Translations under genes and position numbers: made by a program
The notes under the pieces: model-generated
What the model saw: only the letters and a program-made list of their open reading frames with translations
Database searches by the model: none
Told to the model about the DNA's origin: nothing
Source: a virus
Taxonomy: Duplodnaviria; Caudoviricetes
DNA: 64,000 nt
Reading direction: 5' to 3' (one strand)
Virus record (IMG/VR): IMGVR_UViG_3300037502_002379
Span: 50-64,049 of that record
Shown: positions 1,665-56,268 of the stretch, one piece after another
Position numbering within the stretch: the first letter of the stretch is position 1
Layout of the letters: the number at the start of each line of letters is the position of its first letter

Positions 1665-1672
1665 TACATTTG
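1665..1672 (+). promoter_or_regulatory. Bacteroidetes sigma-A -7 promoter element (TACATTTG) for the early operon
   Basis: TAnnTTTG match about 30 nt upstream of the ORF at 1701, followed by an A-rich leader. Confidence 0.6.
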
Positions 1673-1700
1673 CACATCATTAATCAACAAAAACAATTTT

Positions 1701-2117
1701 ATGAAAAACAACACAGTAACAACTTTAGACAGTATTAAAGAACAAATTATTGACCGTTTGCAAGACTACAAAGGCGGCTTATATTATGGTTGCGACCTTG
1801 CTTACAAATTATTTGAGGGTGAAAATGCGAACGGTTCAGTATTTTGCAACACTTACAAAACAGTTGAGTTTATCAAAGAAAATTTCGATTTGTTTGGCGA
1901 CTTTGTTCAGCATTGGGATAATGCAACGGGTGAAACACTTAATCCATTTAGTGAGCCTGAAAAGTGTCATGTAATCTTTTTGCTAGAGGCTGCAAATTCA
2001 ATTCTATCTTCATGTGGCTATATTTCAGAAAATTGGGATAATCGCATAGAATTAACCGAAGATGTTATTGAAACGATAACAGAGCAGGTTAATGAGTTTG
2101 ATGGGGATTTATTCTAA
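1701..2117 (+). CDS. acidic early protein, hypothetical
   Basis: First gene after the early promoter; D/E-rich, 138 aa. Confidence 0.7.
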   Translation: MKNNTVTTLDSIKEQIIDRLQDYKGGLYYGCDLAYKLFEGENANGSVFCNTYKTVEFIKENFDLFGDFVQHWDNATGETLNPFSEPEKCHVIFLLEAANSILSSCGYISENWDNRIELTEDVIETITEQVNEFDGDLF

Positions 2118-2200
2118 CATTTCATTTTCGCGCTCGGTTAAGCCGTATGCCTCAAGAGCAGGCGCGAAAGCTATTTTTTAACAATCAAAAATCAATTTTT

Positions 2201-2416
2201 ATGAAAAATGTTTATGGTGTTTTATTAAATGGTTCACATGTAGATGTGTCAAAAACTGAAAAAGGCGCAAAAAACTTTGCAACTAGGAATGGTTATTTAA
2301 CCGTAACCGTAAGATATAACTGTGGATATATAGCGAGAGAAATAGCGCACAAATACAATGGCAAATGGAAAACCATAAAGCCAGAAAATTCACAAATAAG
2401 ATACAACACCAAATAG
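2201..2416 (+). CDS. small early hypothetical protein
   Basis: ORF 2147..2416; ATG at 2201 follows an A-rich leader (MKNVYG...). Confidence 0.55.
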   Translation: MKNVYGVLLNGSHVDVSKTEKGAKNFATRNGYLTVTVRYNCGYIAREIAHKYNGKWKTIKPENSQIRYNTK

Positions 2417-2425
2417 CCCAATACC

Positions 2426-2599
2426 ATGCAAAATACATTAAAAAACGCTTTACAGGTTTACATCAAACATTGCCAAACCATGCGAGACAACGCAAAGCAC
2501 ATTGATGAGGTATATCATTGGCAAGGCGAACAAAAGAACGCAAACCACGCTTTAATTGAAATTATAGCGGCACAACCTCAAACAGACTTGATTTTTTAA
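2426..2599 (+). CDS. small early hypothetical protein (57 aa, below ORF-track cutoff)
   Basis: Read by hand: MQNTLKNALQVYIKHCQ...; fills the gap in the early operon. Confidence 0.5.
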   Translation: MQNTLKNALQVYIKHCQTMRDNAKHIDEVYHWQGEQKNANHALIEIIAAQPQTDLIF

Positions 2600-2616
2600 C
2601 TAAACAACATAACAAC

Positions 2617-2817
2617 ATGAAAAACGCAACAAACAGCGCCATGATTCTGCTTGCATGTGCAACATTCGCACTGATAACAACGATTTACGCAAACATTCAC
2701 GACCAGCACAAAGCAAAGACACAACGCCAACGCTATTTAGATTGCGTAGAAAGCACGAACGGCACAGACGCGGAATGTGATTCATGTTTCTTTATTATTC
2801 ACCATGTAAAGCCGTAA
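2617..2817 (+). CDS. small membrane-anchored hypothetical protein
   Basis: N-terminal hydrophobic helix and C-terminal Cys motif. Confidence 0.55.
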   Translation: MKNATNSAMILLACATFALITTIYANIHDQHKAKTQRQRYLDCVESTNGTDAECDSCFFIIHHVKP

Positions 2818-2819
2818 AT

Positions 2820-3161
2820 ATGAAAGTAGAACAATTAACAAACGGACAATTGTATAAAACCAAAAAGGGGGCGCGTGTGAGTGCCTTTGAAAAAGAACGG
2901 CTGAACCGTTTTGCCGATAGCTTGTTGTGGATTCTGAATAACGAAAAAGCAGCAACCGCGAAACTATCCGGCACATTCAATTCTCAAAAAACCTATTTTG
3001 AGTTTCTCAATGCTTTCCGATTCGCGCAGCAAATACGCTTTTCCGTTGCGCAGGGGAATGAAATTGACATTAGCCAATACAAGGGCAGGGAAAAGCAATT
3101 TGAGGCTGTAATAGACCGTATTAAAGCCGAAGGGCAACAAACACGTATTTTTAATCATTAA
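2820..3161 (+). CDS. hypothetical early protein
   Basis: ORF 2784..3161, likely start MKVEQL at 2820. Confidence 0.55.
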   Translation: MKVEQLTNGQLYKTKKGARVSAFEKERLNRFADSLLWILNNEKAATAKLSGTFNSQKTYFEFLNAFRFAQQIRFSVAQGNEIDISQYKGREKQFEAVIDRIKAEGQQTRIFNH

Positions 3162-3174
3162 ACAATAAAACAAA

Positions 3175-3447
3175 ATGGAAGCAAAAACAAATTGGTACAC
3201 AAAAACCGAAAGCAATCAGCCGATAATAGCGGATGAGGAAACAGGCGACACTATTGCCGTAATTTACAATCAAAAAGACGGAAGCGAAAAGCAGATAGCA
3301 AACCTAATTGCAAGCGCGCCCGAACTTCTTGAAGCGCTTACCGATGTGCTAAGGATATTAAACCTTGAACCAACTTACGACAATTTGTACCAAAGGAACA
3401 AAATTGAAGCATTAATTAACAAAGCAAAAGGAAATACATCATGCTAA
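3175..3447 (+). CDS. hypothetical phage protein (ANLIASAPELLEAL family)
   Basis: Carries a motif common in small phage proteins. Confidence 0.65.
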   Translation: MEAKTNWYTKTESNQPIIADEETGDTIAVIYNQKDGSEKQIANLIASAPELLEALTDVLRILNLEPTYDNLYQRNKIEALINKAKGNTSC

Positions 3448-3632
3448 AAGCTACACTATTACTAAAAAGGAGGGCGAAAATTGCCATTCTAGGACGGCAA
3501 GCAGCCGAAGATGGGTATTTTCACAAGGTGATGCAGGCACATCATTTATTGCGCCAAATTGATGAACAATTATTAGGTTTGACTTCACAAAAACCGTTTT
3601 ATGCCGTACACAATAACCGAACCTTGTCTTAA
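3441..3632 (+). CDS. hypothetical protein
   Basis: ORF track; overlaps neighbours in an operon. Confidence 0.45.
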   Translation: MLKATLLLKRRAKIAILGRQAAEDGYFHKVMQAHHLLRQIDEQLLGLTSQKPFYAVHNNRTLS

Positions 3633-3792
3633 CGCTGTAATTCGCGCAGAAGCCAATTATCAAAATGCGGAACACTTTTACCTGTGTGCTTACCGTAAAG
3701 CTATGCAGCATCCAACATTTAATAACCAACACACGCTAATTAAAGCAGGTCAAATATGGTGGCTTGCATCAGCGAACCGAAATTTTAATTAA
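3601..3792 (+). CDS. hypothetical protein
   Basis: ORF track; operon context. Confidence 0.45.
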   Translation: MPYTITEPCLNAVIRAEANYQNAEHFYLCAYRKAMQHPTFNNQHTLIKAGQIWWLASANRNFN

Positions 3793-3804
3793 CAAATCAA
3801 ACCA

Positions 3805-3984
3805 ATGCAAAACAACAACACATTCCTGACCGCAAAACAATACGCTGAAAAGTACAACATTACTAAAAGGGAGGCGATACACCGTTGTACCCGTAACCGA
3901 GTGCATTACTACAAGGTGGGGCGCGAATATCGGATTGAGGATAAAGACCTCGTGAAGATTAAACCCGGACGCAAGACCAAATAG
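3805..3984 (+). CDS. excisionase-like HTH protein (59 aa)
   Basis: Read by hand: MQNNNTFLTAKQYAEKYNITKREAIHRCTRNRVHYYKVGREYRI...KPGRKTK, an HTH_17-type pattern. Confidence 0.6.
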   Translation: MQNNNTFLTAKQYAEKYNITKREAIHRCTRNRVHYYKVGREYRIEDKDLVKIKPGRKTK

Positions 3985-4000
3985 GCAGCAAACCGACAGC

Positions 4001-4028
4001 AAGCCGTTCCAATTGGGGCGGCTTTTTT
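4001..4028 (+). terminator. intrinsic terminator between the convergent early and replication operons
   Basis: AAGCCGTTCC-AATT-GGGGCGGCTT hairpin followed by a T tract. Confidence 0.75.
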
Positions 4029-4042
4029 GTTTGTGGGAAAAC

Positions 4043-5818
4043 CTAAAAAGGCGCTGGTTCTAAATCTGAATTGTTTTTACCGAAAATCTTTTGATAGTAT
4101 TGATACTGATTTTGCTCTAAAGGGTTCTGCCTGTTAAGAAAATACCTGTTTTTAGCCCTGTCAAATGTAAACACACAAGTACCGGGAATACCAACCAATT
4201 TCTGCTTCTTAACCTTTCTGACAATTACCTCAACCGTTGTGTTCATAGGGTCGGTTAAAATGTACGGGCGGTGTAAAACAATTATGTTGTCCATCTTGTT
4301 ACCCCACATAGCACCCCCTGCAATATCGTAAATATCAGGTACATCATAGTTTCCGTCCTTAGTCTTTTGCATCGTTTTAGGGTGAGCCGATATAACGTAA
4401 CGCAAATTATGTTCTACTGCAAACCGCTTTCTTTCGCGCAAAAAAGCCGATAGGAATTTATCATCCCGTTCAGAAGTATCTACCTCTAATTGATTAAACG
4501 GGTCAATAAACACCCCTTGTATGTTTTTGGTTTCAATCAGATGTAGAACGTTTGCATCTATTTCTGAAACCGTATGTTTATCGGGGTATATGTAGAAAAA
4601 ATGTTCTTTGATAAACTTATAGCCGTCCTCGTATTGCTCAAATGTCATTTGGTTGCGGTCATAGTACGGGTCGGTACTTTTCCCTACTAAGGCATGAATA
4701 AGGGTGTCTATAAATTCATCAACGGGATAGTTTTCGGGAGAGAATACTGCCCATTTCCATCCGTCAAAAACCGAACGCATAAGCATGAGTTGTAGCATAA
4801 ACTCTGTTTTGCCTGCGTTTGGTCGGGCTATTATCAAGGTTATTTCACCCTCTTTCCACTTAAAATTTATGTCAAATTCAGCAAAGTGTGTTGTTTCACC
4901 ACGCTTTTTGCCATGAAAAAATTGCTTTTTCATCTCCTCCCACACCCCATCCACTTCAATAATACCATCCGATTTTATCTGTACGGGCGTGTATTCATCA
5001 ACCGAAATAGGGTTGCGCTGCCCGTATTTAATACCGTTCTCTATGGTTTTTATAGCACCCTTTATGTCAGCTATATCCTTGTTGGCAATTTCTGCCTCCA
5101 ATATTCTTTTAGCCTCAAAGTAATCCACATAACCCGATGCAATGTAACCACCCATCAAGCGTGAGGCTTTTAACAAAACATTATGCTTTTCACCGTCAAC
5201 TGAATTGCGTATCATCTGTACGGCTATTTGTATCTTAGCGTAGTTTGTTTTGACTTGCGTATCTAAGTTGCCGCCAACGGGTGTTGTGTCAATCAGTTCC
5301 TCCATATCAGTAAACTCAACAGCATTTTTGTTGATGTATATGTCGGGGTCATAGCTTTCAAAACACACCCTGCTGATGTTAATTGAGGTGGCATCTAATT
5401 CGGGAAAGCGTTTTAACAGCGCCTTGTAATGCTTCCGATGGTTGTCTATTGAAGGGGGGATTTTTACCAATACTTTCAAACCATCTCCCGATGGGCTGAC
5501 AAACACCGAGTAAACGAACTCATTAGAAGCGATTTCAGCCTTTTTTTCGGGCAATTTGGCAATATGGTCAAAATCAAGCACACAAAGCCCGCTATGAGCC
5601 TCTATTGCGCTGTCCTTGCGTTCTGTAAACCTACCTGCAAAGATGATAGACGGCAACATCTTCTTTTTGTCGCGTCTTACAGCCTCGTCAGTTTCATTTC
5701 TGATTTCGTCTATTTGTTGTTTTATCTTGCCGTTTTTTATCCGGTCAAGAATAACATCAACCTGCACATAATACGGCTGCTTTGTTTCTAAAGCGTTTTT
5801 GTAAACTGTTACTATCAT
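4043..5818 (-). CDS. primase-helicase (BT4734/VirE-N-like primase domain plus SF4 DnaB/Twinkle-type helicase)
   Basis: N-terminal LDFDH, SPSGDGLK and SRVCFESYD motifs; Walker A ARPNAGKT; Walker B FIDP; AHP and DIAGGAMW motifs. Confidence 0.85.
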   Translation of the reverse strand: MIVTVYKNALETKQPYYVQVDVILDRIKNGKIKQQIDEIRNETDEAVRRDKKKMLPSIIFAGRFTERKDSAIEAHSGLCVLDFDHIAKLPEKKAEIASNEFVYSVFVSPSGDGLKVLVKIPPSIDNHRKHYKALLKRFPELDATSINISRVCFESYDPDIYINKNAVEFTDMEELIDTTPVGGNLDTQVKTNYAKIQIAVQMIRNSVDGEKHNVLLKASRLMGGYIASGYVDYFEAKRILEAEIANKDIADIKGAIKTIENGIKYGQRNPISVDEYTPVQIKSDGIIEVDGVWEEMKKQFFHGKKRGETTHFAEFDINFKWKEGEITLIIARPNAGKTEFMLQLMLMRSVFDGWKWAVFSPENYPVDEFIDTLIHALVGKSTDPYYDRNQMTFEQYEDGYKFIKEHFFYIYPDKHTVSEIDANVLHLIETKNIQGVFIDPFNQLEVDTSERDDKFLSAFLRERKRFAVEHNLRYVISAHPKTMQKTKDGNYDVPDIYDIAGGAMWGNKMDNIIVLHRPYILTDPMNTTVEVIVRKVKKQKLVGIPGTCVFTFDRAKNRYFLNRQNPLEQNQYQYYQKIFGKNNSDLEPAPF

Positions 5819-11805: not shown

Positions 11806-12627
11806 TTAAATAATTATTTTCTTAATAGGGCTTGCAGTGCCTAAAATATCTACATCTGCTATCTTTATATACCCCGCAGTTGTATTTATATTTTTATGAC
11901 CTGCAATTTTTTGTACCGTTCTTAAATCAACGCCATCTATTACCATTTGAGTTAAACAACTGTGTCGTAAAGAGTGTGATGATATTTTCTTTTTAAAACC
12001 TAATTTATTTGCAATAGACTTAACAAGTGTCTGTATGCTTTTTTCTGAATACTTACCACCTTTAGCGCCCTCAAATAAATATGTTTTTGTTTGGTAAATT
12101 TTCCAATATTCCCTTAATAATTTTACAATGGCAGAATCAAGCATCACTATCCTGTCAACTTTTCCTTTCCCATTTTTTACTTGTATTTTATTATTAGAAG
12201 TATCTATGTCTCTAATTTTTAAATTTACAACCTCTCCTACTCTAAGGGCACATGAATACATTATACAAATAATAGCTTTATGCTTAATATTTTTTGTGTA
12301 ATTAACCATTCGCTGAAACTCATCAACTGACAATACATCTGGTTGCTTTTGCTCAATTTTAGGTCGAGGCAATATTTTATTATTAAAATTCTTATCTAAA
12401 CATAACCTGTAATAACACTTAAAGGCATTTATTACAGCCATTCTTGTTGATGCAGAATAATGAGTTTTACTTAGCAAGTACATACGCAAATCATTTTCGG
12501 ATATATCTTTAGCATCTTTATTAAAATGTTTTGAAACATTAGATACTATTGATAAATAACTCCTTGAAGTTTTGCCACTAAAGTTTTTTAGAAACATCAA
12601 TTCTTTAAAATCTTGCAATTTATCCAT
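11806..12627 (-). CDS. tyrosine recombinase, putative integron-like cassette integrase
   Basis: SAM-like N-terminal domain; catalytic R (LRVGE), K (GKGK), HxxR (HSLRH), H (GH) and Y (TTAGY) all present; lies 53 bp from the first cassette boundary. Confidence 0.9.
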   Translation of the reverse strand: MDKLQDFKELMFLKNFSGKTSRSYLSIVSNVSKHFNKDAKDISENDLRMYLLSKTHYSASTRMAVINAFKCYYRLCLDKNFNNKILPRPKIEQKQPDVLSVDEFQRMVNYTKNIKHKAIICIMYSCALRVGEVVNLKIRDIDTSNNKIQVKNGKGKVDRIVMLDSAIVKLLREYWKIYQTKTYLFEGAKGGKYSEKSIQTLVKSIANKLGFKKKISSHSLRHSCLTQMVIDGVDLRTVQKIAGHKNINTTAGYIKIADVDILGTASPIKKIII

Positions 12628-12639
12628 AATGCAAAGATG

Positions 12640-12688
12640 CTAATTATTTTTGATATACGCAATATTGGACTATATAATAGTTACCTGC
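12640..12688 (+). other. attI-like primary recombination site (TATATAATAG|TTACCTGC)
   Basis: First G|TT junction next to the integrase start; no attC hairpin precedes it. Confidence 0.65.
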
Positions 12689-12693
12689 AAGCA

Positions 12694-13656
12694 CTACGGA
12701 CGTTCTTCGATTAAGCATTTCGGTTCAGTTTTAAATAATTTTTTTTCCTCCACTTTTAAAAAAGAAAAGATATGTTCAACTATTCCAACAGTCCATCCAT
12801 CACCAATCAAATTGCCCGCCTGTGCCTTGTTTAAATTTCTTGTATATCCTTCGGGTATATTATGAAGCCTTTCAAGTTCCTTTTGTGTGCAATACCTCAC
12901 TCCCTTACTTTCGTCCATTGTTTCGTCTGTATAAATGATTGTAGTCATTCCAGTAGTTGCGTAACGGTGCAACATATATCTTTGGTTTGCATCTCGGCCA
13001 CAACTTGTATTTAAACAAGTATGTTTCTTTTTATCAGAATATCCGTATTCCAAAACATCATTTAACAGTATCTTTTTATCTCTCGGTTGTGGTATTGCAC
13101 ACTTTCTGTTTCCAAATAAATCAAAAGTTTCAGGCCCGATATTAGTCCAAAACAATCTATCTCTCAATGCACCACTCACTCTACTTCCACAAAGTCTTAC
13201 AGGTTCAGTTCCTAATAATTCAGATATTGTATTGTAGCCTAAATCATCCATTATCACATTTTCAAGCAAATAGTAATCGGGTTTAGTTTCTTCGAGTAAT
13301 CTTATGTATTCATAAAATAACATTGATTTCATTCCTTTTAATCCATCCCTTACGCTATTTGCCCTACTAAAATCTTGGCACGGGCTACCTCCAATCAATA
13401 AATGTATTTTTGGCAAATCTTGGCCTTTCACTTTTGTAACATCTCCAATCTGAATAGTATCAGGAAAATTATCCATTGTGCATTGTATGGCGTGTTTCTT
13501 TATTTCGGCTGCATAATATCGTGTAGGTTTCAATCCTACATTATTAAGGGCAATTTGTCCGCAACTCATACCATCAAATAATGATAATACGTTAAATTCT
13601 TCGGCAAAGCCGTTTTTGCCATCCCTCAAAAAATTATTTAAAACTGTTTCTTTCAT
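12694..13656 (-). CDS. C5-cytosine DNA methyltransferase (cassette 1 cargo)
   Basis: LSLFDG (motif I), GGSPCQ (motif IV), LENV (motif VI), R.RLFW and IGDGW. Confidence 0.9.
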   Translation of the reverse strand: MKETVLNNFLRDGKNGFAEEFNVLSLFDGMSCGQIALNNVGLKPTRYYAAEIKKHAIQCTMDNFPDTIQIGDVTKVKGQDLPKIHLLIGGSPCQDFSRANSVRDGLKGMKSMLFYEYIRLLEETKPDYYLLENVIMDDLGYNTISELLGTEPVRLCGSRVSGALRDRLFWTNIGPETFDLFGNRKCAIPQPRDKKILLNDVLEYGYSDKKKHTCLNTSCGRDANQRYMLHRYATTGMTTIIYTDETMDESKGVRYCTQKELERLHNIPEGYTRNLNKAQAGNLIGDGWTVGIVEHIFSFLKVEEKKLFKTEPKCLIEERP

Positions 13657-13689
13657 CTAATTAGCTTTATCGTTTAATAAACCGTGCCA

Positions 13690-13785
13690 GCAGGTAACAA
13701 GGTATTTGCAAAATTGCCCATCAACATTGTGCTTAATTTGAAGTATCTGCAAGGGCAACTTCGCAAATACCCAAACGTTATGCCC
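13690..13785 (+). repeat. attC-like site of cassette 1
   Basis: GCAGGTAAC ... GGTATTTGCAAAATTGCCC / GGGCAACTTCGCAAATACC stem ... GTTATGCCC. Confidence 0.85.
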
Positions 13786-13789
13786 AATG

Positions 13790-14185
13790 CTAAGACAGCG
13801 TTCTGCCAAAACATGTGACTTTTTGACCATCTTCAAAATGACTTGCTTTTTCTAAAAGTTCATTCATAATGTCATTGATATTAAAATTATGTGAGAAACC
13901 CATCTCAATTTCATAGTTACCGTTTCGGTCAATAACACAACCCATTGCTTTTTCAACGCTTTCGGTTAATAGTTCTCGATAAAAATCTTTATCTATATTC
14001 AAATCCTTTACAATAATGTGTGTTGTGAATTTTCTACTTTGTATTCCACACATTGAAACTTCTGATGGGTTTCCATTTCCTAATTGAAACTGACCAAACA
14101 TAAGCAAGTCATTATCATCACACCAATGGTAATCCTTTTCGTTTACATAACCTTTCGGTCTTGAATCTGCTACAAATACTTTCAT
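13790..14185 (-). CDS. hypothetical protein (cassette 2 cargo)
   Basis: Single ORF filling cassette 13777-14345. Confidence 0.75.
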   Translation of the reverse strand: MKVFVADSRPKGYVNEKDYHWCDDNDLLMFGQFQLGNGNPSEVSMCGIQSRKFTTHIIVKDLNIDKDFYRELLTESVEKAMGCVIDRNGNYEIEMGFSHNFNINDIMNELLEKASHFEDGQKVTCFGRTLS

Positions 14186-14218
14186 TTTTCTGTTTTAAAA
14201 TTGTTCAAAAAAAGCACT

Positions 14219-14354
14219 GGGCATAACACGTGTTTTGCGTTATGGTGGCTGACGTGCTGAAATCAACCGCAGTAATTCTATTTGGCTTTAGTGCTATGCC
14301 GACAGTTAGTGCTACTAATCCGCCACAAACGCAAAGCACCTGAACGTTAGGCAC
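14219..14354 (+). repeat. attC-like site of cassette 2
   Basis: GGGCATAAC ... GTGTTTTGCGTT / AACGCAAAGCAC stem ... GTTAGGCAC. Confidence 0.85.
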
Positions 14355-14670
14355 AATATGCTTTCCTGTATCGCTCAATTATGGTATCGTTTTCTGCAAA
14401 TGGTAATGCTATCGGGCATGGGTGGTCAAAGTCAAAAAAACTTTCCTCTCCACATTTACTACACTTGTAATGAACAACATTCCTTTCTTCAACATACACA
14501 TCTCTGATAAATGATAAGTTTTTTTGCCCTTCATCATCTGTATCGCCACACATTTCATTTTTACATTTGCAGTAAACGAATGTTCTTTGGTTCTTCTTCC
14601 TAATCCGCATACTGCTCCTAACATGGTATTTATGCCATGCCGTATTTAGTGCTTTAATCAAGTTTGTCAT
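14347..14670 (-). CDS. Cys-rich (Zn-ribbon) hypothetical protein (cassette 3 cargo)
   Basis: CKC...C and CSKC motifs; the TAA stop lies inside the GTTA junction; likely ATG at 14670. Confidence 0.65.
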   Translation of the reverse strand: MTNLIKALNTAWHKYHVRSSMRIRKKNQRTFVYCKCKNEMCGDTDDEGQKNLSFIRDVYVEERNVVHYKCSKCGEESFFDFDHPCPIALPFAENDTIIERYRKAYCA

Positions 14671-14738
14671 TCTATTTAGGTTTAAATTGTTAACCAACTT
14701 TTGTCTTTCAAATCGGCACGGACATAAATACTCGTCCC

Positions 14739-14953
14739 GTTATAAGCAAGTGGCTGTGGTTAAAGTTCAACATTCCGAACTCCTCCTGTGGTTATCGGAG
14801 GCAGTCTTTGAACTTTACCACTCCACAGCCACCAGACTTATAACATGGGCTAAAACGCAATAGGCACGGAGTACCTTTCAGCATTTGTGATAGCATTGAA
14901 CCACTTGTCCCGTTTAGTTCTGTATGCACACCTACTGCGTTTAGCCCAATTCC
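14739..14953. other. ORF-less hairpin cassette (cassette 4)
   Basis: GTTATAAGCAAGTGGCTGTGG pairs with CCACAGCCACCAGACTTATAAC; inner AAAGTTCAA/TTGAACTTT and TCCGA/TCGGA pairs. Confidence 0.75.
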
Positions 14954-14962
14954 GTTATGCTC
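14837..14962 (+). repeat. attC-like site of cassette 4
   Basis: CTTATAAC ... GGGCTAAAACGCAATAGG / CCTACTGCGTTTAGCCC ... GTTATGCTC. Confidence 0.85.
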
Positions 14963-15140
14963 CATTGCTACGTGTCTGCTTCGATTTGAAATTTGTGGAA
15001 GTTTTTTGTTCTTTTTTCTCCCCACGCACAAGAAAAATCAAATGGTCTTGAATAAAGTTTTTAAGGTCTTTATCTGCGTCAATAGCCATCTTCTTTAAGT
15101 CTTTGACTATTTCTTCGGGTATGTCAATTAGCTTTTTCAT
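14955..15140 (-). CDS. ribbon-helix-helix-like regulator (cassette 5)
   Basis: MKKLIDIPEEIVKDLKKMAI...LKNFIQDHL has the beta-alpha-alpha pattern. Confidence 0.65.
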   Translation of the reverse strand: MKKLIDIPEEIVKDLKKMAIDADKDLKNFIQDHLIFLVRGEKKEQKTSTNFKSKQTRSNGA

Positions 15141-15143
15141 AGA

Positions 15144-15248
15144 TTATTCAATACCCATACCATCGGATTTTTTGTAAATTATAATTCCAAAAATTACCCA
15201 AACTACTATTACAAATATAAGGGCTTGTCCTATTGTTATATCGCACAT
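15144..15248 (-). CDS. 34-aa single-TM peptide (cassette 5)
   Basis: Read by hand: MCDITIGQALIFVIVVWVIFGIIIYKKSDGMGIE*. Confidence 0.5.
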   Translation of the reverse strand: MCDITIGQALIFVIVVWVIFGIIIYKKSDGMGIE

Positions 15249-15484
15249 AATTTCCTTTTTGCTTCAAATAAATCAAACATTTGTTCACCAGTTAGCGATA
15301 ATGTAATTCTACCACCATCAGTGTAAGTGCCTGTAATTTCATCTTCTTCCATTGCATCATAAACTTTAGAAAGTATCATTGCAATAGTTTCTAATTCATC
15401 CGCAGTTAATTTTTGACTGCGTTTTTTTGGCTGAGCGTCTAATGTGCTGTTGCCAATATTTCTTTCGTTAATTCTATATCCCAT
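15236..15484 (-). CDS. hypothetical protein (cassette 5)
   Basis: ORF 15236..15538; ATG at 15484 lies downstream of the internal promoter TATATTTG at 15508-15515. Confidence 0.6.
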   Translation of the reverse strand: MGYRINERNIGNSTLDAQPKKRSQKLTADELETIAMILSKVYDAMEEDEITGTYTDGGRITLSLTGEQMFDLFEAKRKLCAI

Positions 15485-15626
15485 TTTATGTGGTTTTAAA
15501 TTATATGCAAATATATGCCGTATATATGACATACGCAAGAAAAAAGTAAAATATTTTTTGCCTACCCATAAAAAAAGAACAAAAACCTTGCTCCTATTGA
15601 AGTTTACTGCTAAAAATCCGCAACGA

Positions 15627-15726
15627 GAGCATAACAGCGGTTTTGCGTCAGGCGGGGTGCGGTGCTAACTTTGAACATTCGTGCTAATAAACCCGCCCGA
15701 ACGCAAAGCCGCAAAACGTTATGTGC
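15627..15726 (+). repeat. attC-like site of cassette 5
   Basis: GAGCATAAC ... GCGGTTTTGCGT.AGGCGGG / CCCGCCC..ACGCAAAGCCGC ... GTTATGTGC. Confidence 0.85.
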
Positions 15727-15745
15727 AATTTTCTTTTTCATTTTT

Positions 15746-16693
15746 TTAGCCAACGCTCAAATGATTTAATGATTTTTTGAATGGGTTATACTCATAATCT
15801 TCCCAACTGCACGAATTGAAGATTATCCTATTGTTTACATATCTTGTGTATGCTTTTTGATACCTATCATCTTTATTGTATGGCATTACAAAAGGCTTAC
15901 ATCCCAATTTCCTTAAAAATTCAACTCTGTAATAATCTTCTTCGGGAGAAGTATCAAACCCAATTAAAACAAAGAATTGCATATGTTCGCAAGGTATTCC
16001 CCATTTATTACAGCGTTCAATACCTCTAATTATTACCTTTTCATCTTTGAATTGGTCCCACGCAAATGTCAAGTATCGTTTGTTGAATTTTGAATTGTAA
16101 TACTTCACTTTTGCTAATGCTTCTGCTTGTCTATCTGAAATAATGCGAATATTCAAACCTTGAACAAAGCAAACTTTCAAATCAAGTTCTGCAATTCTAT
16201 TCAAATTAGCTTCCCAATTTGTGCCACCAAAAAAATCATTATCCAAAAGCATCAAGTTTTTACCGCCTGATGGGTTAGTGATAAGTTCGTCAATGGTATT
16301 GTAATTGTATGGTCTGCCTTCTTTTTTTGGCACACAACAAAAATCACATTTAAAACGGCATCCTTTCATTGAAAATCCATAATGAAAAGGAGTATTTGGA
16401 TAAATCTCCCAATCCATTGGAGCATTTTCAATTTCAGCAGGTAGTTTGTTATAAAAATCAATTCCAGTTCCACCAATCACCATATTTTCGGGTATTTGTG
16501 GCATTTCGCTAAAATTAAAAATCTTACTTGCATAAATCTTATCGTATTGACTTGCAAACAATATTCCTTCATACCATTCGACTGTATCGCCAATAGATTT
16601 ATGGTAAGCCGATATTTTCATAAGTGCAATATTTGGAAATTGTACTCCTTGATAATCCGTTCCATCAACTTGATATATTGCTATTCGTGCCAT
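15746..16693 (-). CDS. radical SAM protein (cassette 6 cargo)
   Basis: CxxxCxxC motif GCRFKCDFC; PNIALMKIS, GGTG and LLDNDF motifs. Confidence 0.85.
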   Translation of the reverse strand: MARIAIYQVDGTDYQGVQFPNIALMKISAYHKSIGDTVEWYEGILFASQYDKIYASKIFNFSEMPQIPENMVIGGTGIDFYNKLPAEIENAPMDWEIYPNTPFHYGFSMKGCRFKCDFCCVPKKEGRPYNYNTIDELITNPSGGKNLMLLDNDFFGGTNWEANLNRIAELDLKVCFVQGLNIRIISDRQAEALAKVKYYNSKFNKRYLTFAWDQFKDEKVIIRGIERCNKWGIPCEHMQFFVLIGFDTSPEEDYYRVEFLRKLGCKPFVMPYNKDDRYQKAYTRYVNNRIIFNSCSWEDYEYNPFKKSLNHLSVG

Positions 16694-16746
16694 AAATGAT
16701 TTAATGATTTAATTGCCCACGCACAAAAAATGAAAAAGAAAACAGA

Positions 16747-16879
16747 CACATAACAGCACATTGCCAAAAGTGGCGATGCGGTGCTAAAATCAAGTGTAGT
16801 GCTTCTAATTATCATTTGTGCTATATTCAAAATTTGTACTTCTAATTCGCCACCATCGGCAATCTGCAACCCGTTATAT
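16747..16879 (+). repeat. attC-like site of cassette 6 (distal end of the array)
   Basis: CACATAAC ... ATTGCC....GTGGCGA / TCGCCAC....GGCAAT ... GTTATAT; the G|TTA overlaps the stop of ORF 16874..17080. Confidence 0.8.
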
Positions 16880-46061: not shown

Positions 46062-47153
46062 TTACGCCTTAGCTTCTTTGTTGCTTTTTAAAGCAAGCAA
46101 TTGTTCTACCGTTATACCTAATTCGATTGCGGCTTTTTCTAACACGCTATCTTCTTTTTGCTCAACAATCCCTGCTGTGGCTTTTTGAATTAAGTCTTGG
46201 ATAGATGATATGGTTGCCGTATCTGCCTTCTCAACAAGTTTCGCGGCTACAACTTCGTGTTTGTTGCCATCTACTCCTTTAGGTAATTGCATGATAGGCT
46301 GTGCTTTGCCTTTGTTATAGTAAGGTGTTTCCTTACCCCACTTCACCCTTTGTTCGCTAAATGTCAAAATACCCAAATCAAAAGCGGTTTTAATCTGCGC
46401 TGACAATCGGTATGATTGCGAAGTCAAGTCTTTCAAGAACTTGTCAGGGTTTTCTTTTGCCTTGTTAGACAACCATACTCTGATTTTCTTGATTGGCGAC
46501 TTAGCTGCGTTCTGCATACCATAAGATGTTGCCATATCCAATGCGTGTTCGTCTGACAACTTAGTCTTGTCATAGCACAACGCTTGTGCCTGTACCGCCC
46601 TTGCTGATTCGTAGTAGTCTGTTTCAGCTTCCAACTTAGGCTTCAATTCGTAAATCAAAAATCCTCCGTTCTGTGGTTTGTACAATGGCTCACCATCGTT
46701 ATTCATCATCCACTTGTGGTTGGTCTGATTGCGCTCACTCATACGTAAGAACAATAACACATCTTCTTGACCGGGATATACGGTGTAATTTCCGTCCTCA
46801 AACTGCAATCTGTCGCTGCCATTATACAGATAGATAGTGGTGTCGTCTTTTACCGTTTCGGTTGTGTACAATACAACATTTTCAGAAATAGGCACGTTAC
46901 CTTCATCAATAAAAGTGTTGTTGGCGTGTATCTGAAATCCGAATGTTTTTGCGTATCGTGGTTTGTAAAACACCGAATTATCTCTCGGTGATACCATTGG
47001 TACTAATTGTTTGTACCCTGCGCTTTGCCAAAATACTATTGGCTCTTTGATTTGTACTTCTGAATTGTCTGCGCTTTTAGGCAATCCTAATGTTACCTTT
47101 AATCTGTCGTACACCTCTTGGGTGCTTAATAACTTACCGTTAATTTTTAGCAT
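46062..47153 (-). CDS. conserved protein downstream of the capsid gene
   Basis: 363-aa ORF; position only. Confidence 0.6.
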   Translation of the reverse strand: MLKINGKLLSTQEVYDRLKVTLGLPKSADNSEVQIKEPIVFWQSAGYKQLVPMVSPRDNSVFYKPRYAKTFGFQIHANNTFIDEGNVPISENVVLYTTETVKDDTTIYLYNGSDRLQFEDGNYTVYPGQEDVLLFLRMSERNQTNHKWMMNNDGEPLYKPQNGGFLIYELKPKLEAETDYYESARAVQAQALCYDKTKLSDEHALDMATSYGMQNAAKSPIKKIRVWLSNKAKENPDKFLKDLTSQSYRLSAQIKTAFDLGILTFSEQRVKWGKETPYYNKGKAQPIMQLPKGVDGNKHEVVAAKLVEKADTATISSIQDLIQKATAGIVEQKEDSVLEKAAIELGITVEQLLALKSNKEAKA

Positions 47154-47176
47154 GGTTAATTGTTTTGTTAATGATT

Positions 47177-47211
47177 AAAAAAGCAAAGGGGTGTATTTCA
47201 ACCCCTCTGCT
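47177..47211 (-). terminator. intrinsic terminator after the major capsid gene
   Basis: AGCAGAGGGG...CCCCTTTGCTTTTTT on the minus strand. Confidence 0.7.
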
Positions 47212-47223
47212 AAAAGTTAAATA

Positions 47224-48603
47224 TTATCCGTTCAGAACGAAAAACTTATTGAGCGCCTTGAAACGAATACCTGTTCTTGTCAGATAGTTTACGTTCAAGT
47301 TGTCAATTTGGTCGGTAGGTACGGGAGCGTTTGCACCTGTCTTCCAAATCTTCATTTCTGTTCCTGCTCCACCTTGTCCGATAACATCCAAGTATGTCAA
47401 TTCCACATACCCTTTGATACCGCTTTGTCCTGTTCCTGCAAGTGGGTCAAGTGGCATGATAACACCCAAGTTAGGAGTAGTAAAGCCTGCTGCACCGTAG
47501 GTTTCAGGGTCGTTCAATTCCTGTATCTTAGCCAAGTGGAAGAAGTAGTTACCTTTAGAAAATCCGCGCACGTTGTAGTTTGCGAAGATGCTATCAGTAC
47601 GAACCGCTTGCTCGTTTACAACAGGGTTAGATACGCCTGTAAGTGTCTTAGAGAACACAATAGGGTTTTGAGTAAATGTGTTTACCACACCGTTCTCAAT
47701 ATCTTGGTACAAGCTACCACCTGCTACGATTAGGTTGTTCAAGCATCCTACTTCTGCATCGAACACACGAACGATGTAGTCCATATCGGGAATACCGAAA
47801 GAACCCGGAGTTGTAGTTGTGCTGTTACCGTTTGCCAATACCGCAGGAACCATACCGAATACGTTTTGCTCGCCAGGCTCTGTCAATGCGTTTGCGTTGG
47901 TTACAACTTGGTCGAACATCAAACCACCACCAATCATACGCTGAATACGCATTTCTTCTTCAATCTGTGGCATGATAGCGAATACTCCACCCGGAATAGG
48001 CTGTCCACCGTATTGAGTTGTCCACGCATCTACGCTCAAAGCTGTACCTGTTGCGGTTGCAGTGCCTTTGATGATTTTGTTGTAGTATTGGTACAACTCA
48101 GGTTGAGTAAAGGTGCTTTGTGGCTGACCTGTACCTTCACCGCTTCTACGAGAGAAGTTGATAATTGGTGTACCTGCTGCAATGTTGTTGAACGGTACGT
48201 TATCTGCTTCGATTGTAAGAACGGGTGCAGAAGGAATAGACACGTCAATTGCTGTAATCTTACCGCGAACCTTGTCGGTTGTCATCACCTGCATACCAAC
48301 TTGTGGGTAGAAAGTGTTGTCCGAATTAACATCGGCTACGGAAAGGGTTACTGAAATGCTCAAACCGCCTGTTACGTTAGTACGAGGGCTGAATGATTTG
48401 ATAATACGAGGCTGCTCATTGGTGAAGTTGGTGATTTGTGTTACACGCTGCTTCATACCCAAAAGTTGCAATAATGAATACAAGGTCAAACCGTTGTATT
48501 TATACTTCTGAACGTACAGATTTTGCACGTCAGGTTTCAACAAGTAGTTGAAGGTTGATAAGAGTACCTCACTCGCGGGTGCGGTAAATGATGTAGTTGC
48601 CAT
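47224..48603 (-). CDS. major capsid protein
   Basis: 459 aa; follows portal and scaffold; high-expression codon bias; EGT.QP motif; terminator downstream. Confidence 0.8.
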   Translation of the reverse strand: MATTSFTAPASEVLLSTFNYLLKPDVQNLYVQKYKYNGLTLYSLLQLLGMKQRVTQITNFTNEQPRIIKSFSPRTNVTGGLSISVTLSVADVNSDNTFYPQVGMQVMTTDKVRGKITAIDVSIPSAPVLTIEADNVPFNNIAAGTPIINFSRRSGEGTGQPQSTFTQPELYQYYNKIIKGTATATGTALSVDAWTTQYGGQPIPGGVFAIMPQIEEEMRIQRMIGGGLMFDQVVTNANALTEPGEQNVFGMVPAVLANGNSTTTTPGSFGIPDMDYIVRVFDAEVGCLNNLIVAGGSLYQDIENGVVNTFTQNPIVFSKTLTGVSNPVVNEQAVRTDSIFANYNVRGFSKGNYFFHLAKIQELNDPETYGAAGFTTPNLGVIMPLDPLAGTGQSGIKGYVELTYLDVIGQGGAGTEMKIWKTGANAPVPTDQIDNLNVNYLTRTGIRFKALNKFFVLNG

Positions 48604-52284: not shown

Positions 52285-52327
52285 TCATGCTATTTTGCGC
52301 AAATGTAATACTTTTTGCAAAAGAATG

Positions 52328-53407
52328 TTAATCTGCTAAAAGTGAAATGTGTTCTTGCCAATATTGTCGAGGTCTTATATTTATCAAATATAAGTTTGTA
52401 GCCTTTTTACAACATGCAACATAGTCTTTTGTTAAAGTGGTATGCTTATGCAGTCTATCTACATACTCCCCTCTTACACTTAGCCTATGCTTGTACACTC
52501 TATTTGTAGCCTTAACGGGTAGTTGACCATGAATAACCACATTGAACTCATACGGCTCATGCTCGAATACAATCTCGAAATCTTGGTCGGTTTGGTGGCG
52601 TAACTGATTTACGTCAAATCCTTCGGGTACGATAAAAGTAATAAACGGGCGTGTGCATACGTCAAAATCATGTCGCCATATTGTACGCGGCTCTGTCCAA
52701 CTTGAACCCGATAGGTGCGTAACGTAATCGGCTACATTAAACCCGTCAACCTTATAACCTAAATCTTGCGCTGCCATCATAGACAACACACAAGGCGAAC
52801 CGTCATTGCAGAATATCGCAGGGTGGTAATGTCCGTTTACCAACTTAACTTGTACGTTCTGCAACTGCAAGTATATGTCGCGGTTGTAAAACGAGAATGA
52901 AGGGTGCGCGTATGGCAATACATCGGTTTCATCCAATGGTGCGCCATTTGCATAGTTTTTTCTTGAAGTCAGCATCAGCGTTCCATAGCCGAACATATCG
53001 TCTGTTAATTGTGATATGGCTTGTTCTAAAAACCCACCGCGCTCAATGATAACATCGCTATCCATTGCCAACACCCACTTTGTCGTAATGTGTTCGGTTA
53101 TGGCTTTGTGCATGGTTATACCATGACTTGTTTTGCCGCCACTTGGGTTAGGTTTTGTCCACACACACAAGTTGCTGTGCTTGGTCTGCATAAACGCCAA
53201 ATACTCCGAACTATCGTCTTGGCTATCACCGTCCACAACCAATACGGGAATGTCGGGGTAAAATCGAAACAGACTTTCAAGGCACAATTGAATAAGGTCT
53301 TTTGTTTTACGTTGGCATATTAGCACCGTTACGTTCTTTTTCGCCCATTCTTCTTTGTGCTTTTGCGTGTTAATTCCGTATGGTCTGTCTAATTGTGTTT
53401 CAATCAT
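52328..53407 (-). CDS. glycosyltransferase, family 2-like
   Basis: VLVVDGDSQDDS and MDSD (DxD) motifs. Confidence 0.8.
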   Translation of the reverse strand: MIETQLDRPYGINTQKHKEEWAKKNVTVLICQRKTKDLIQLCLESLFRFYPDIPVLVVDGDSQDDSSEYLAFMQTKHSNLCVWTKPNPSGGKTSHGITMHKAITEHITTKWVLAMDSDVIIERGGFLEQAISQLTDDMFGYGTLMLTSRKNYANGAPLDETDVLPYAHPSFSFYNRDIYLQLQNVQVKLVNGHYHPAIFCNDGSPCVLSMMAAQDLGYKVDGFNVADYVTHLSGSSWTEPRTIWRHDFDVCTRPFITFIVPEGFDVNQLRHQTDQDFEIVFEHEPYEFNVVIHGQLPVKATNRVYKHRLSVRGEYVDRLHKHTTLTKDYVACCKKATNLYLINIRPRQYWQEHISLLAD

Positions 53408-53450
53408 GGTTTATGTTGTTGATTATCAATATACATTCGCAAAGTATCAT

Positions 53451-54317
53451 GTTATACGCAAGGGCTACATTCCGTCTCCGTTTGACAATTTCGTGTTCAA
53501 AAAAAAACAAAAAATTTCCCCACGCTTCTAAAATAATGTAGTTTGCATTTGTTCATTCTCTAATCGTTTTAATCCTGCCAAATAATATTCCTCTACTAAT
53601 TCACACCCAACAAGGCTAAACTTCTCCCTATGGCAAGCAATCGCAATCGAAGCACTTCCCAAGTGAGTATCTAAAATCAAATCGCCTTCCTTTGCATAGT
53701 TTTGTAATATCCATTGGTATAGTTGTATTGGCTTTTCTGTCGGGTGTATGCGTTCTTGCTTGTTGCCCATATTTTGCTGTATAAATCCGTGCCAAGTCCA
53801 TTTAAAAGTCCTTACAGCAGTATCAAAAGAAGTCCAAGCAAGTTCAGCATCAGCAAAATATCCGCCTACTTTGTTTTTATCCCAAACAAGCCAACAACTA
53901 CTATTTTTATTTATCCGTTCAATAAAGTGGTTTGCCCCCCAAATGATTTGATTTTTAGATACTCTCATTAGTTCGTCAAAATAAGCCTTGTCAGGTGCTT
54001 TTTTATCCCAATCGTATTTAGTGTATTGCTTTGCCTTTCCTGCTCCGTCAATACCTATTTTACCGCCATCCATATCAATTCCGTATGGTGGGTCAACTAT
54101 TGCTAAATCAAAATGTTTGTCAGGGTATTTAGCCATAAGTTCCATATTGTCGCAATTAAATAATTCTATTTTCCCTTCGCTCATTTTTTGTTTTTTTTGT
54201 TTGTGCTACTAATTAAGTTCCTACTAAATAACCGCCCCAGCGTATAACACGGGTTTGGCGCAATTTTCCCAACGCACAAGCCGACACACAACTGCGCCAA
54301 GCCCGAAAACGTTATCT
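53451..54317. mobile_element. solitary gene cassette with attC-like site (54240-54317)
   Basis: Starts GTTATACGC; ends GCGTATAAC, then CGGGTTTGGCGCA / TGCGCCAAGCCCG stem, then GTTATCT. Confidence 0.85.
53528..54184 (-). CDS. N6-adenine/N4-cytosine DNA methyltransferase, beta class (cassette cargo)
   Basis: DPPY, HPTEKP and DTHLGSAS motifs. Confidence 0.9.
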   Translation of the reverse strand: MSEGKIELFNCDNMELMAKYPDKHFDLAIVDPPYGIDMDGGKIGIDGAGKAKQYTKYDWDKKAPDKAYFDELMRVSKNQIIWGANHFIERINKNSSCWLVWDKNKVGGYFADAELAWTSFDTAVRTFKWTWHGFIQQNMGNKQERIHPTEKPIQLYQWILQNYAKEGDLILDTHLGSASIAIACHREKFSLVGCELVEEYYLAGLKRLENEQMQTTLF

Positions 54318-55223
54318 CATTTCAGTTAAATACCAATCAATCGTTTTTTGCAGCCCTTGTTCAAATGTATGCTTTGACTTCCATCCTAATTCGGTCTGAA
54401 TTTTAATGCTGTCAATCGAGCGCCTGTCAATGTTGTCAATGCTGCGTTTTGCAATATGTTCTTGCGATACAAATTTTTCTAAAAGAGTTTGTAATAAAGC
54501 CACTATATGCACAACGCTTAATTCTTGCATCGCTGATACATTGTATATTCCAATTGCTTTCTTCTCTATTGCTAATACTACGGCATCACACACATCTTCT
54601 ACATAGGTGAAATCGCGTGTTTGTCTGCCACTTCCAATTATTTCAACATCTTCACCAACTACTGCTTTGTGTACCATCTTCCCAATCACTCCGCAATACG
54701 GGTTTGTGTGGCGCTGATTGATACCGTACACATTTGACAAGCGCAATATACAAGTGTTTTTTTCGTTCATAAAAATATGTTCTGCCAACCACTTTGTTTC
54801 TGCATAGATGTTTGTCAGTTTGATTGGCGCTGTTTCGGGTGTGGGTAGAATATCAGCATTGCCGTAAACGCTTGTTGTGCTGATATAAATAACGCGCTTA
54901 CCTGCTTTTATCAACTTACCAAACACATCAACGGTTGAATGATAGTTATTGTCAATCGTTTCTTTTCGGTGAGTTTGAGCGTAGATAATATTGCTTGTGG
55001 CGCAATGAATAATTACATCGCAAGACATCATTTCTTCCAACTGTGTGTTAAAGTTGGCTATCTTCCAATCAACACTAACAAGCAAGTCCAATGACTTTAA
55101 ATTCTCAATAGTGCCGAATGACAAATTATCGCAGCCGTACACACACCAACCTTCGTCAATCATTCGCTTGGCAATGTTTGACCCTACGAAGCCCATAAGA
55201 CCTGTTATATAGCATTTTTTCAT
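54312..55223 (-). CDS. NAD-dependent sugar epimerase/dehydratase
   Basis: ITGLMGFVG, YAETK, NVYG and RDFTYVED motifs. Confidence 0.9.
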   Translation of the reverse strand: MKKCYITGLMGFVGSNIAKRMIDEGWCVYGCDNLSFGTIENLKSLDLLVSVDWKIANFNTQLEEMMSCDVIIHCATSNIIYAQTHRKETIDNNYHSTVDVFGKLIKAGKRVIYISTTSVYGNADILPTPETAPIKLTNIYAETKWLAEHIFMNEKNTCILRLSNVYGINQRHTNPYCGVIGKMVHKAVVGEDVEIIGSGRQTRDFTYVEDVCDAVVLAIEKKAIGIYNVSAMQELSVVHIVALLQTLLEKFVSQEHIAKRSIDNIDRRSIDSIKIQTELGWKSKHTFEQGLQKTIDWYLTEMR

Positions 55224-55990
55224 GGCTTAACCCCTTTTACTTTAATCAAATAATCAGCAAAACTTACTTGCTCTTTTGGCTTTTCAAACACCACATAGTT
55301 TTTCCATTCGCGGTACAAAGTGCTATTTTCGGTGTGTTCCACGTAGAAGTCTTTGAGTATGCACCATCCCCAACGCCCTGCCATTCTCTGATACGAAGCG
55401 TGTTCCAACCATCCGTATATGCTGTTACCTCCATTCGGTACGGGTACACCGCCTATCTCATTCAAAAAGTCCATGTTAAAGCCGCCTTGTGCCCAATTGC
55501 TGCAACCATTAACCGAATACACATCATGTCCGTATTTAACCTTGTGGTGCAGCAAACCACCGTTCTGTGCTAACTTCTCGTGCGCGTCCGTATTCAATGA
55601 CACCCATGCCATTTTAGGCTGCGCTTCAAACACATCTGCAATAGCTTTAACCCATCCTTTTGTTTTTGTGCGTTCATCGGGGTCGGCACAAATAACACAA
55701 CCACTTTCAATTTGGCTGTGCATTATCACTTGATTCCAATTCTGACTAACGCCAATATTGTCAATCTTAACGTACTCCGAACCGAACTTTTTAGCAAGCC
55801 CTTGTAGTAATACGCTGTTTGTTTCTTGCGCTTCTGATACGCTTTTAGGCAATCCGTCAAAAAATATAGGGAAGCCAACATCAGCGATAATGTGCTTATC
55901 AAACTGACCGCCACATTGCTCGTACAAGTCTTGCGTGGCTTTTTCTACTTCCGTAAATAGGTTAAAAGCTAATGTGTGAACTAATATCAT
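55220..55990 (-). CDS. glycosyltransferase-like protein
   Basis: NIGVSQNWN and DPD (DxD) GT-A features. Confidence 0.6.
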   Translation of the reverse strand: MILVHTLAFNLFTEVEKATQDLYEQCGGQFDKHIIADVGFPIFFDGLPKSVSEAQETNSVLLQGLAKKFGSEYVKIDNIGVSQNWNQVIMHSQIESGCVICADPDERTKTKGWVKAIADVFEAQPKMAWVSLNTDAHEKLAQNGGLLHHKVKYGHDVYSVNGCSNWAQGGFNMDFLNEIGGVPVPNGGNSIYGWLEHASYQRMAGRWGWCILKDFYVEHTENSTLYREWKNYVVFEKPKEQVSFADYLIKVKGVKP

Positions 55991-56031
55991 TTATATGTAG
56001 TTGGTTTTAATTTGTATTTGCGAAGTGTCGT

Positions 56032-56268
56032 GTTATGTGGCATTAAGTAAACCATTGAATATAATACCCATCAAAACCTTTTACTATTTTACCACATTTA
56101 ATCCAACCTTCAAAAGGTTCATACTTCCAAGCATACCCGTTTTCTATCTGTATCATTTTTTAAATTTTAACGGCACATAACAATGGTGTTGCATAATAAC
56201 CCCATCAAGTGTCGTGGTTAATTTTAAGTTTATACTAAGAACTACTACACAAAGCCATAAGCCATTAA
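56032..56268. mobile_element. degenerate solitary cassette with a 37-aa ORF and a decayed attC-like site
   Basis: GTTATGTGGCATTAA pairs with TTAACGGCACATAAC; the downstream sequence is homologous to the attC at 13690; the terminal GTT reads ATT. Confidence 0.65.

Follow-up and report, generated by a model that had tools for sequence, protein, structure and literature searches.

In bacterial integrons, isolated cassettes located at non-classical attG or secondary sites have been described as SALINs, single attC sites without an integrase (Loot et al., bioRxiv 10.1101/2022.09.11.507474, in the available part of the preprint). CALINs, clusters of attC sites without an integrase, have been reported from phages by Qi et al. 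2023 (PMC9892861, in the available part of the article), including Polaribacter phage P12002L with its methyltransferase (MTase) cassettes; at G|TT of one P12002L attC, IntI1 brought about recombination. Archaeal integron integrases keep the IntI domain, according to the available part of another preprint (bioRxiv 10.1101/2022.02.06.479319). Phage CALINs and cassettes of the SALIN/attG kind are thus already known. We found no description of such arrays being linked to an Xer-like recombinase in the literature searched, most subscription journals lying outside its coverage.

Here, we analysed a window of 64,000 nucleotides from a Caudoviricetes virus (IMG/VR record IMGVR_UViG_3300037502_002379), which covers essentially all of the 64,049-bp record and has nearly all of its genes on the - strand. 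The original prediction, made from the letters alone, held that a DNA MTase gene in this window is carried by a single cassette inserted 40 kb from the integrase, exactly at a resident stop codon. The MTase cassette is real, well delimited, mobile and of integron type, standing alone in a glycosylation/packaging operon with its distal junction on a resident stop. It is likely that the MTase is the cargo of an integron-type gene cassette captured by a phage Xer-like recombinase platform and now solitary 40 kb away from it; insertion in situ at a bare G|TT by the phage's own enzyme is plausible. The first of these readings draws on four observed features, namely the anatomy of the unit, its membership in a site family, identical cassette ends elsewhere and the association of arrays with a recombinase family. 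As in SALINs, so far as these are covered in the available part of the preprint, there is one cassette with a folded site far from the platform, a short GWT-type core outside attI/attC, and expression only where surrounding transcription allows. In contrast to SALINs as described there, the unit lies in a phage genome, the enzyme is not IntI, the ORF is antisense to the modelled site strand, and a conserved box of 42-44 nt is found at the proximal junction.

The cassette (53452..54311, +) runs from TTA to G and comprises a left arm, the MTase gene on the - strand, a right arm and an attC-like site, its ends having been set by analogy with integron cassettes and corresponding to homology ends in 5 IMG/VR loci. 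The left core GTTA with its cassette-specific arm (GTTATACGC-AA-GGGC; 53451..53465, +) reads GTTATACGCAAGGGC, and 13/15 of its positions are complementary to GCCCCAGCGTATAAC, the right arm ending in the core TAAC at 54248 (GCCC-CA-GCGTATAAC; 54234..54248, +); the two mismatched positions are the central AA versus CA. The attC-like site (54241..54315, +) consists of TAACA, a 13-bp stem, a 30-nt loop, the other stem half, an AAAAC spacer and GTTA. Its hairpin is formed by 54250-54262 pairing with 54293-54305 (13 pairs, one of them T-G), and AAAAC follows the second stem half before GTTA at 54311-54314. Folded as DNA, 54230-54325 reached -16.8 kcal/mol on the + strand (z -3.5, with 0/200 shuffles as good) and -18.3 kcal/mol on the - strand (z -3.1). 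In the right-hand G|TTA junction, TTA at 54312..54314 corresponds, on the other strand, to the TAA codon with which the epimerase ORF (54312-55223, -) stops. The arms, the hairpin, G|TTA at 54311 and the epimerase stop had all been named in the original prediction, and all are present as it placed them.

The cargo is an orphan 218-aa N6/N4 DNA methyltransferase (53528..54184, -; PF01555, 5.7e-17), whose translation carries IVDPPYG, a DPPY motif, consistent with its placement in the beta class of N6/N4 enzymes. No nuclease partner was seen for it, and the gene is flanked by those of a GT2 glycosyltransferase and an NAD-dependent epimerase. By its inferred role, the enzyme probably protects phage DNA from host restriction through methylation. 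An intrinsic-terminator pattern had no match at 53300-54450, and transcription of the gene is therefore probably by read-through from the glycosylation/packaging operon; all cassette ORFs in the window are antisense to the modelled site strand and co-directional with phage transcription.

Taken alone, the inverted repeat of the MTase cassette is within chance, as the window contains 14 GTTA.../...TAAC pairs with at least 13/16 matches within 3 kb compared with a mean of 7.9 in 30 Markov shuffles. This result, and the fact that orphan MTases are common in phages, would suit an ordinary moron, in which an orphan MTase is accompanied by a regulatory hairpin (a terminator or RNA element) and by chance repeats, with no site-specific mobility. 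We consider such a moron highly improbable: besides the missing terminator, no Rfam family was found at the solitary hairpin, which instead belongs to a site family of 200+ members tied to a recombinase, and identical cassette ends recur in unrelated contexts. The MTase cassette is significant because three lines of evidence combine, namely a covariance model from which it was left out, six tiled cassettes built in the same way, and external copies with identical ends.

The tiled cassettes lie beside a 273-aa Xer-like tyrosine recombinase (11806..12627, -), 40.8 kb from the solitary MTase cassette, and this array holds the nearest strong site. The recombinase has the catalytic residues R..K..HxxR..H..Y and lacks the IntI-specific insertion, as assessed with Pfam, NCBIfam, PDB and alignments. 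It matches PF00589 (1.5e-39) and PF13495, a SAM-like N-terminal domain (5.7e-07), which places it among Xer-type enzymes, and R129, K154, H218, R221, H244 and Y253 are invariant among the four recombinases of alignment A3. In the PDB, the protein is matched best by the XerA structures 5HXY and 4A8E. Against VchIntIA (2A3V), the alignment splits into two segments (q7-174/9-180 and q194-270/243-319), leaving ~43 IntI residues without a counterpart. Among NCBIfam models, TIGR02249 scored 142.4 bits (cut-off 265) and NF011946 90.5 (cut-off 435), while the best model was the XerA-type NF040815 at 187.9 (cut-off 220); since it falls below every equivalog cut-off, the protein does not count as XerC/D/A proper. 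The IntI-specific additional domain around patch III, required of an integron in the strict sense, is missing from the window recombinase. The system is accordingly not an integron sensu stricto, because its enzyme is Xer-like, is without the ~43-residue IntI part and scores below the integron-integrase cut-offs. As this is the domain by which integron integrases read folded attC sites, its absence from the protein sequence counts against an integron-style reading. What had been predicted as an "integrase" thus does adjoin the array, but it is a compact Xer-like enzyme rather than a strict integron integrase.

Between recombinase and array lies an attI-like region without a hairpin (12628..12683, +), which ends in TATATAATA|GTTA and includes a box, TTTGATATACGCAA, conserved by sequence comparison in two other loci (L086 and L088). 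Its GTTA, 52 nt from the start codon of the recombinase, heads the array, so that an attI-like site is adjacent to the recombinase gene as attI is to intI, and the core TATATAATA|GTTA is kept in other loci. The array (12680..16877, +), recognized from arm pairs, sites, Pfam and the covariance model R2, comprises six cassettes with sites at 13691-13781, 14220-14350, 14615-14743, 14837-14958, 15628-15722 and 16747-16877. The cargo, with ORFs on the - strand, is in order a Dcm MTase, DUF7715, 87-116 aa, an empty unit, 61+100 aa and a radical-SAM-like protein. Each unit opens with GTTA and an arm of ~12 nt, followed by the ORF(s) on the - strand and the complementary arm with TAAC; it closes with A, a 9-13-pair stem, a 30-110-nt loop, the other stem half, and 4-6 unpaired nt ending in C before the next GTTA. 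The arms vary between units, each fitting its own partner, with a recurrent central mismatch of CAA versus CWG. GTTA-arm/arm-TAAC pairs and TAACA...CGTTA hairpins are found in all six array cassettes and in the solitary one. The motifs GCTAC and CCGCC, from which a resemblance between the arms of the solitary and array cassettes had been proposed, do recur, although partly in loops and not in arms. A 106-nt array unit at 14739-14844 has no ORF and yet shows perfect cassette anatomy, with arms and a site of its own.

The likeness to classical integrons extends to the presence of a recombinase, a simple attI, tandem cassettes each ending in an imperfect hairpin, and YAAC...GTTR cores, as well as to the complementarity of the first bases of a cassette with its own distal core. 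Arm complementarity spans 15-20 nt here and 6-7 in integrons, the two spacers are unequal in length (1 nt against 4-6 nt), the ORFs face the recombinase, and hairpins are reassorted between copies. Integron attC sites are imperfect hairpins with RYYYAAC/GTTRRRY cores; here TAAC/GTTA is invariant and the stem covaries, positions beyond GTTA do not fit RRRY (e.g., GTTATAC), and no L boxes or extrahelical bases were identified. Integron cassette ORFs, driven from Pc, are co-oriented with the attC top strand, whereas those in the window are all opposite to the modelled site strand. Breakpoints fall at GTTA/TAAC, which, like the T-G pairs described below, bears indirectly on recombination of a folded bottom strand at G|TT. 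The pdif modules of Acinetobacter plasmids are a further point of reference, being built on 28-bp duplex sites used by host XerC/D. With Xer/dif systems, the window shares a recombinase of the Xer-type family and an organization into discrete gene modules with short inverted sites at their borders; it differs from pdif in its hairpin sites of 54-134 nt and in a phage-encoded enzyme that adjoins the array.

Membership of the solitary site in the same family was assessed with covariance models. In alignment A1, a stem of 12 pairs is shared by 17 sites and compensatory changes occur in 11/12 pairs; paired cells reach 91.4%, compared with 70.2% after shuffling (0/500) and 23-38% after sliding of the partner, the 91.4% being inflated by the stem-requiring scan with which the sites were picked. 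The compensatory changes and the invariant TAACA/GTTA in A1 are unaffected by that selection. Model R2 was built from 19 training sites, including the six array sites and leaving out the solitary site and its homologue in locus L002. On 54241-54315(+) it scored 50.4 bits (E 7e-8), the sole strong non-training match on both strands of the 64 kb, which bears out the prediction that 53452-54311 is a cassette of the array type, with matched arms and a TAACA-hairpin-CGTTA site on the same strand. Besides the training sites, R2 further matched 56174-56268(+), with 26.4 bits, and, at 19.5 bits, 47129-47230(-), which was set aside (19.5-21.2 bits) as it resembles a GC-rich hairpin of the terminator type. 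Site lengths in alignment A2 are 54-134 nt. At columns 14/127 of A1, T-G is the commonest combination at that stem position (8/17 sites) and pairs on the + strand only, which would leave a C-A mismatch on the opposite strand and in the mRNA; judged from the alignment, this T-G pair may mark strand choice.

The mechanism that we propose starts from a platform in which a compact Xer-like tyrosine recombinase is combined with a simple attI-like site (…TATATAATA|GTTA) and a cassette array. A cassette has a TTA-arm at its start and an arm'-TAAC-A-hairpin-spacer-C-G at its end, and its first ~16 nt pair with the ~16 nt before its TAAC, apart from a conserved mismatch of 2-4 nt. Once excised as a circle, it could thereby fold into one long imperfect hairpin holding the conserved TAAC/GTTA core. 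By analogy with integrons, from which both the chemistry and the strand are taken, strand exchange would occur at or beside G|TTA between a folded site and a simple site. For the distal junction of the MTase cassette, GTTA would have been supplied by the complement of the epimerase TAA stop together with the next base.

Copies of the MTase cassette were found in other genomes. Five IMG/VR loci (L002-L006) encode the MTase with 96-99% aa identity, and their DNA is 93.7-95.2% identical to the window over 799-871 nt. In all five, cassette homology starts at 53450 or 53451; it ends at 54249 (just past TAAC), at 54260-54270 (within the hairpin) or at 54315 (past GTTA). The flanks are unrelated to the window and to one another, except that L004 and L005 represent one context, resulting in 4 distinct contexts. 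The cassette lies within a five-site array in L006 and is flanked by sites on both sides in L002, while in L003, a 27.9-kb contig, its site is the only one, so that it is solitary there too. The proposed cassette ends were therefore right, as they are identical in L002-L006, both in arrays and alone. Contigs starting exactly at 53451 were also recovered from lake and wastewater runs (X3, X7). Across subsurface, lake and wastewater data, and across four phage backbones besides the present one, copies of the cassette are 94-95% identical to that of the window. Parts of the stretch that were uncovered in runs X2, X3 and X7 were left out of the evidence. GenBank phages have the MTase alone in common with 52300-55300.

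The hairpin adjoining the MTase cassette, at 54249-54305 in the window, is of four types in six copies (the window and L002-L006). From these sequences, hairpins seem to reassort independently of cargo, and since four hairpin types would not be expected of strict integron-style exchange at a single G|TT, exchange may occur at the TAAC side as well. The L006 hairpin is ~90% identical to the window array site at 15628-15722. We also considered whether each hairpin could belong to the cassette on its other side; this assignment was rejected, as the first cassette would then have no site and the last site no cassette, and no hairpin lies to the left of the solitary cassette.

Inverted ends of 15-20 nt could also be expected of a small non-autonomous transposon, whose arms would be terminal inverted repeats, whose transposase would lie elsewhere and whose target would be duplicated. 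In L003 (3860-4800), the 8-mer AGCCATTA (TAATGGCT in gene orientation) does flank cassette and site on both sides, like a target duplication. No such duplication was seen at the window junctions, and no transposase was found among 17 window ORFs scanned against Pfam. Moreover, the arms vary per cassette save for GTTA/TAAC and a few positions, such that no single transposase could read them, and the units tile head to tail beside a tyrosine recombinase. A transposon is thus a very improbable source of the unit, and a cassette captured by the recombinase platform is the reading that we retain.

How the cassette came to its present position was addressed with the only relative, a single metagenome contig (L082) that is 85-92% (~88%) identical to the window across 49-60 kb. 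Homology stops at 53412 and resumes at 54312, so that the block specific to the window is 53413-54311. The right break is the exact G|TTA junction at the epimerase stop, as the original prediction had it. The left break was not where a bare G|TT insertion had been expected to leave it: this relative without the MTase has its boundary at 53412, 38 nt beyond the cassette end (53451) and its G|TT junction, and its slot of 233 nt is filled by a tightly packed 76-aa ORF, with no arms or hairpin. The empty site that relatives had been predicted to carry, AAGTATCATG|TTATCTCAT, had 0 matches in viral contigs (pattern AAGTATCATGTTATCTCAT), as had the junction pattern CATGGTTTAAACGTTATCTCAT; no empty site was thus found with exact junction patterns in viral contigs, and no excised circle was seen. 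Searches of IMG/VR with single proteins (epimerase, terminase, GT2) yielded no usable close relatives, GT2 retrieving one weak 48% fragment (L001). In the source sample (X1), the sole joint was 53413->54308 on one contig at depth 6.03. It was dropped as an empty or excised allele, given that L082 breaks at identical points and has 233 nt of other DNA in between; with matching break points and a depth resembling the 5.5-7.6 of the variant, the joint is most likely an L082-type variant.

These break points also accord with a different history, in which the whole block 53413-54311 (box, cassette and site) came by homologous or illegitimate recombination from another phage, in which it already lay between conserved genes, and replaced the prior content of the slot, of which the 76-aa ORF in L082 is an example. 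The cassette would then still be a genuine member of the family, but the phage's own recombinase would not have placed it in situ at a bare G|TT. Both breaks with L082, at 53412 and 54312, coincide with the ends of the flanking genes, and a second slot (55993-56268) behaves likewise, L082 having other DNA there with a different 50-aa ORF. On the other hand, the comparison involves one relative only, gene-end breakpoints are expected of any intergenic difference, and the right end coincides exactly with the GTTA core. We regard transfer of the whole block as a tentative alternative and a rather unlikely one, and continue with capture by the platform.

The second slot contains a second, decayed solitary cassette (55991..56268, +) with a box at 55991-56031, arms at 56032 and 56181 (GTTATGTGGCATTAAG / TTTAACGGCACATAAC), a 39-aa ORF on the - strand, and a site at 56174-56268 with the 3' core ATTA (R2 26.4 bits, E 0.004). 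Its final TTA is the stop codon of a 502-aa gene, and its site is 84% identical to array sites in two other loci (L096 and L105), with no stable fold. The decayed site lies 1.9 kb from the MTase cassette, near enough that the two might be classed as a CALIN, and not as a SALIN, by a tool working with distances. The left box of the MTase cassette (53408..53450, +), between the GT2 start codon and the cassette, is absent from L082 and homologous to the left box of the second one. Mutual homology links the two stretches of 42-44 nt that separate the solitary cassettes from the ATG of the next gene (score 14 versus -3.8 +/- 3.4, 0/2000 shuffles), and the 20-nt core of the boxes occurs in the window at these two places only. 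Similarity of the boxes to the primary attI was not significant, with 344/2000 and 868/2000 shuffles scoring as well. From its sequence, the box at 53408-53450 may be a diverged secondary attI-like landing pad or the remnant of a half-site. Box, cassette and site may equally have arrived as one block, which fits the shared box as well as a landing pad does; the finding of related boxes at both solitary cassettes and nowhere else in the window lends some weight to block transfer, against which stands the absence of the box from the other contexts of the MTase cassette, implying that it is not part of the cassette.

Arrays linked to this recombinase family are widespread in viruses. Alignment A3, used as query, retrieved 80 IMG/VR loci with recombinases 21-66% identical, some of the loci being duplicates. 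At E <= 0.01, R2 detected 207 sites in 52/80 viral loci (several of them duplicates), all of which (207/207) lie on the strand opposite to the recombinase and upstream of its start, with none downstream. Of 91 unique sites in a 25-locus subset, 89 have TAACA and 87 have CGTTA. The arm rule held for 46/64 consecutive site pairs compared with 2/64 with shuffled partners, and the longest ORF was on the recombinase strand in 65/67 inter-site intervals. The same site family is represented in P12002L, where R2-family sites beside the MTases scored 28.9, 26.1 and 23.8 bits on the opposite strand, without correspondence to the published attC1/attC2 being implied; N6_N4 MTase cargo is a further likeness. 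In contrast to the P12002L CALIN, for which the available part of PMC9892861 has no linked recombinase ('Xer' occurring 0 times there), the array here abuts an Xer-like recombinase, and arrays do so in the 52 viral loci above.

The original prediction further held that the system seeds single cassettes across the genome. Of five whole contigs scanned, two (G001 and G002) have extra clusters 15-29 kb from the recombinase, which agrees with remote placement in other phages, in-situ insertion in the present genome being no more than plausible. Each remote cluster is headed by a clear copy of the attI core, GTATATATAATA|GTTA, and since they open with attI copies and not with arbitrary G|TT sites, they also speak for block transfer in the window. 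In 80 bacterial and archaeal loci that encode related recombinases, R2 had only 9 matches, and the five with a phage-like layout come from only 2/80 loci, in Chryseobacterium ginsenosidimutans (L170) and Epilithonimonas mollis (L179). Both loci may represent prophages, and may point to Flavobacteriales as hosts.

Pfam names 6/52 array cargo ORFs, comprising two N6_N4 MTases, two MT-A70 MTases, a Tad6 Thoeris inhibitor and an RNA ligase, and counter-defence functions are plausible for all six. The remaining 46/52 are unnamed small proteins. There is, in our view, an even chance that these loci represent a distinct and widespread phage gene-capture system, in which Xer arrays without the IntI domain stock counter-defence genes and place cassettes at secondary pads, preferentially just after TAA stops, and which would be a phage mirror of bacterial integrons, either convergent or near-ancestral.

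If this reading holds, phages own an integron-like toolkit for swapping small accessory genes, and one identifiable enzyme family together with a recognisable site would make that exchange traceable in metagenomes. The MTase cassette would be a concrete case of a putative anti-restriction gene moving between phages with base-pair-exact ends, and the arrays, with their 46 unnamed cargo ORFs, would be a rich source of new anti-defence genes. A recombinase lacking the IntI domain and acting on attC-like hairpins, as the sequences suggest, would bear on the origin of integron recombination from Xer-type enzymes. The wider recombinase-linked array system is a more interesting result than the single cassette.

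The Freya and Leef Polaribacter phages have recombinases 34-35% identical to the one described here, and no clear sites were found in them by simple scan or model. Ten near-identical GenBank records (Freya_1-10, MT732463-MT732472) range in length from 43,978 to 48,920 bp, with the integrase position shifting from 71 to 4168, a comparison of records that suggests a variable region upstream of the 34%-identical recombinase.
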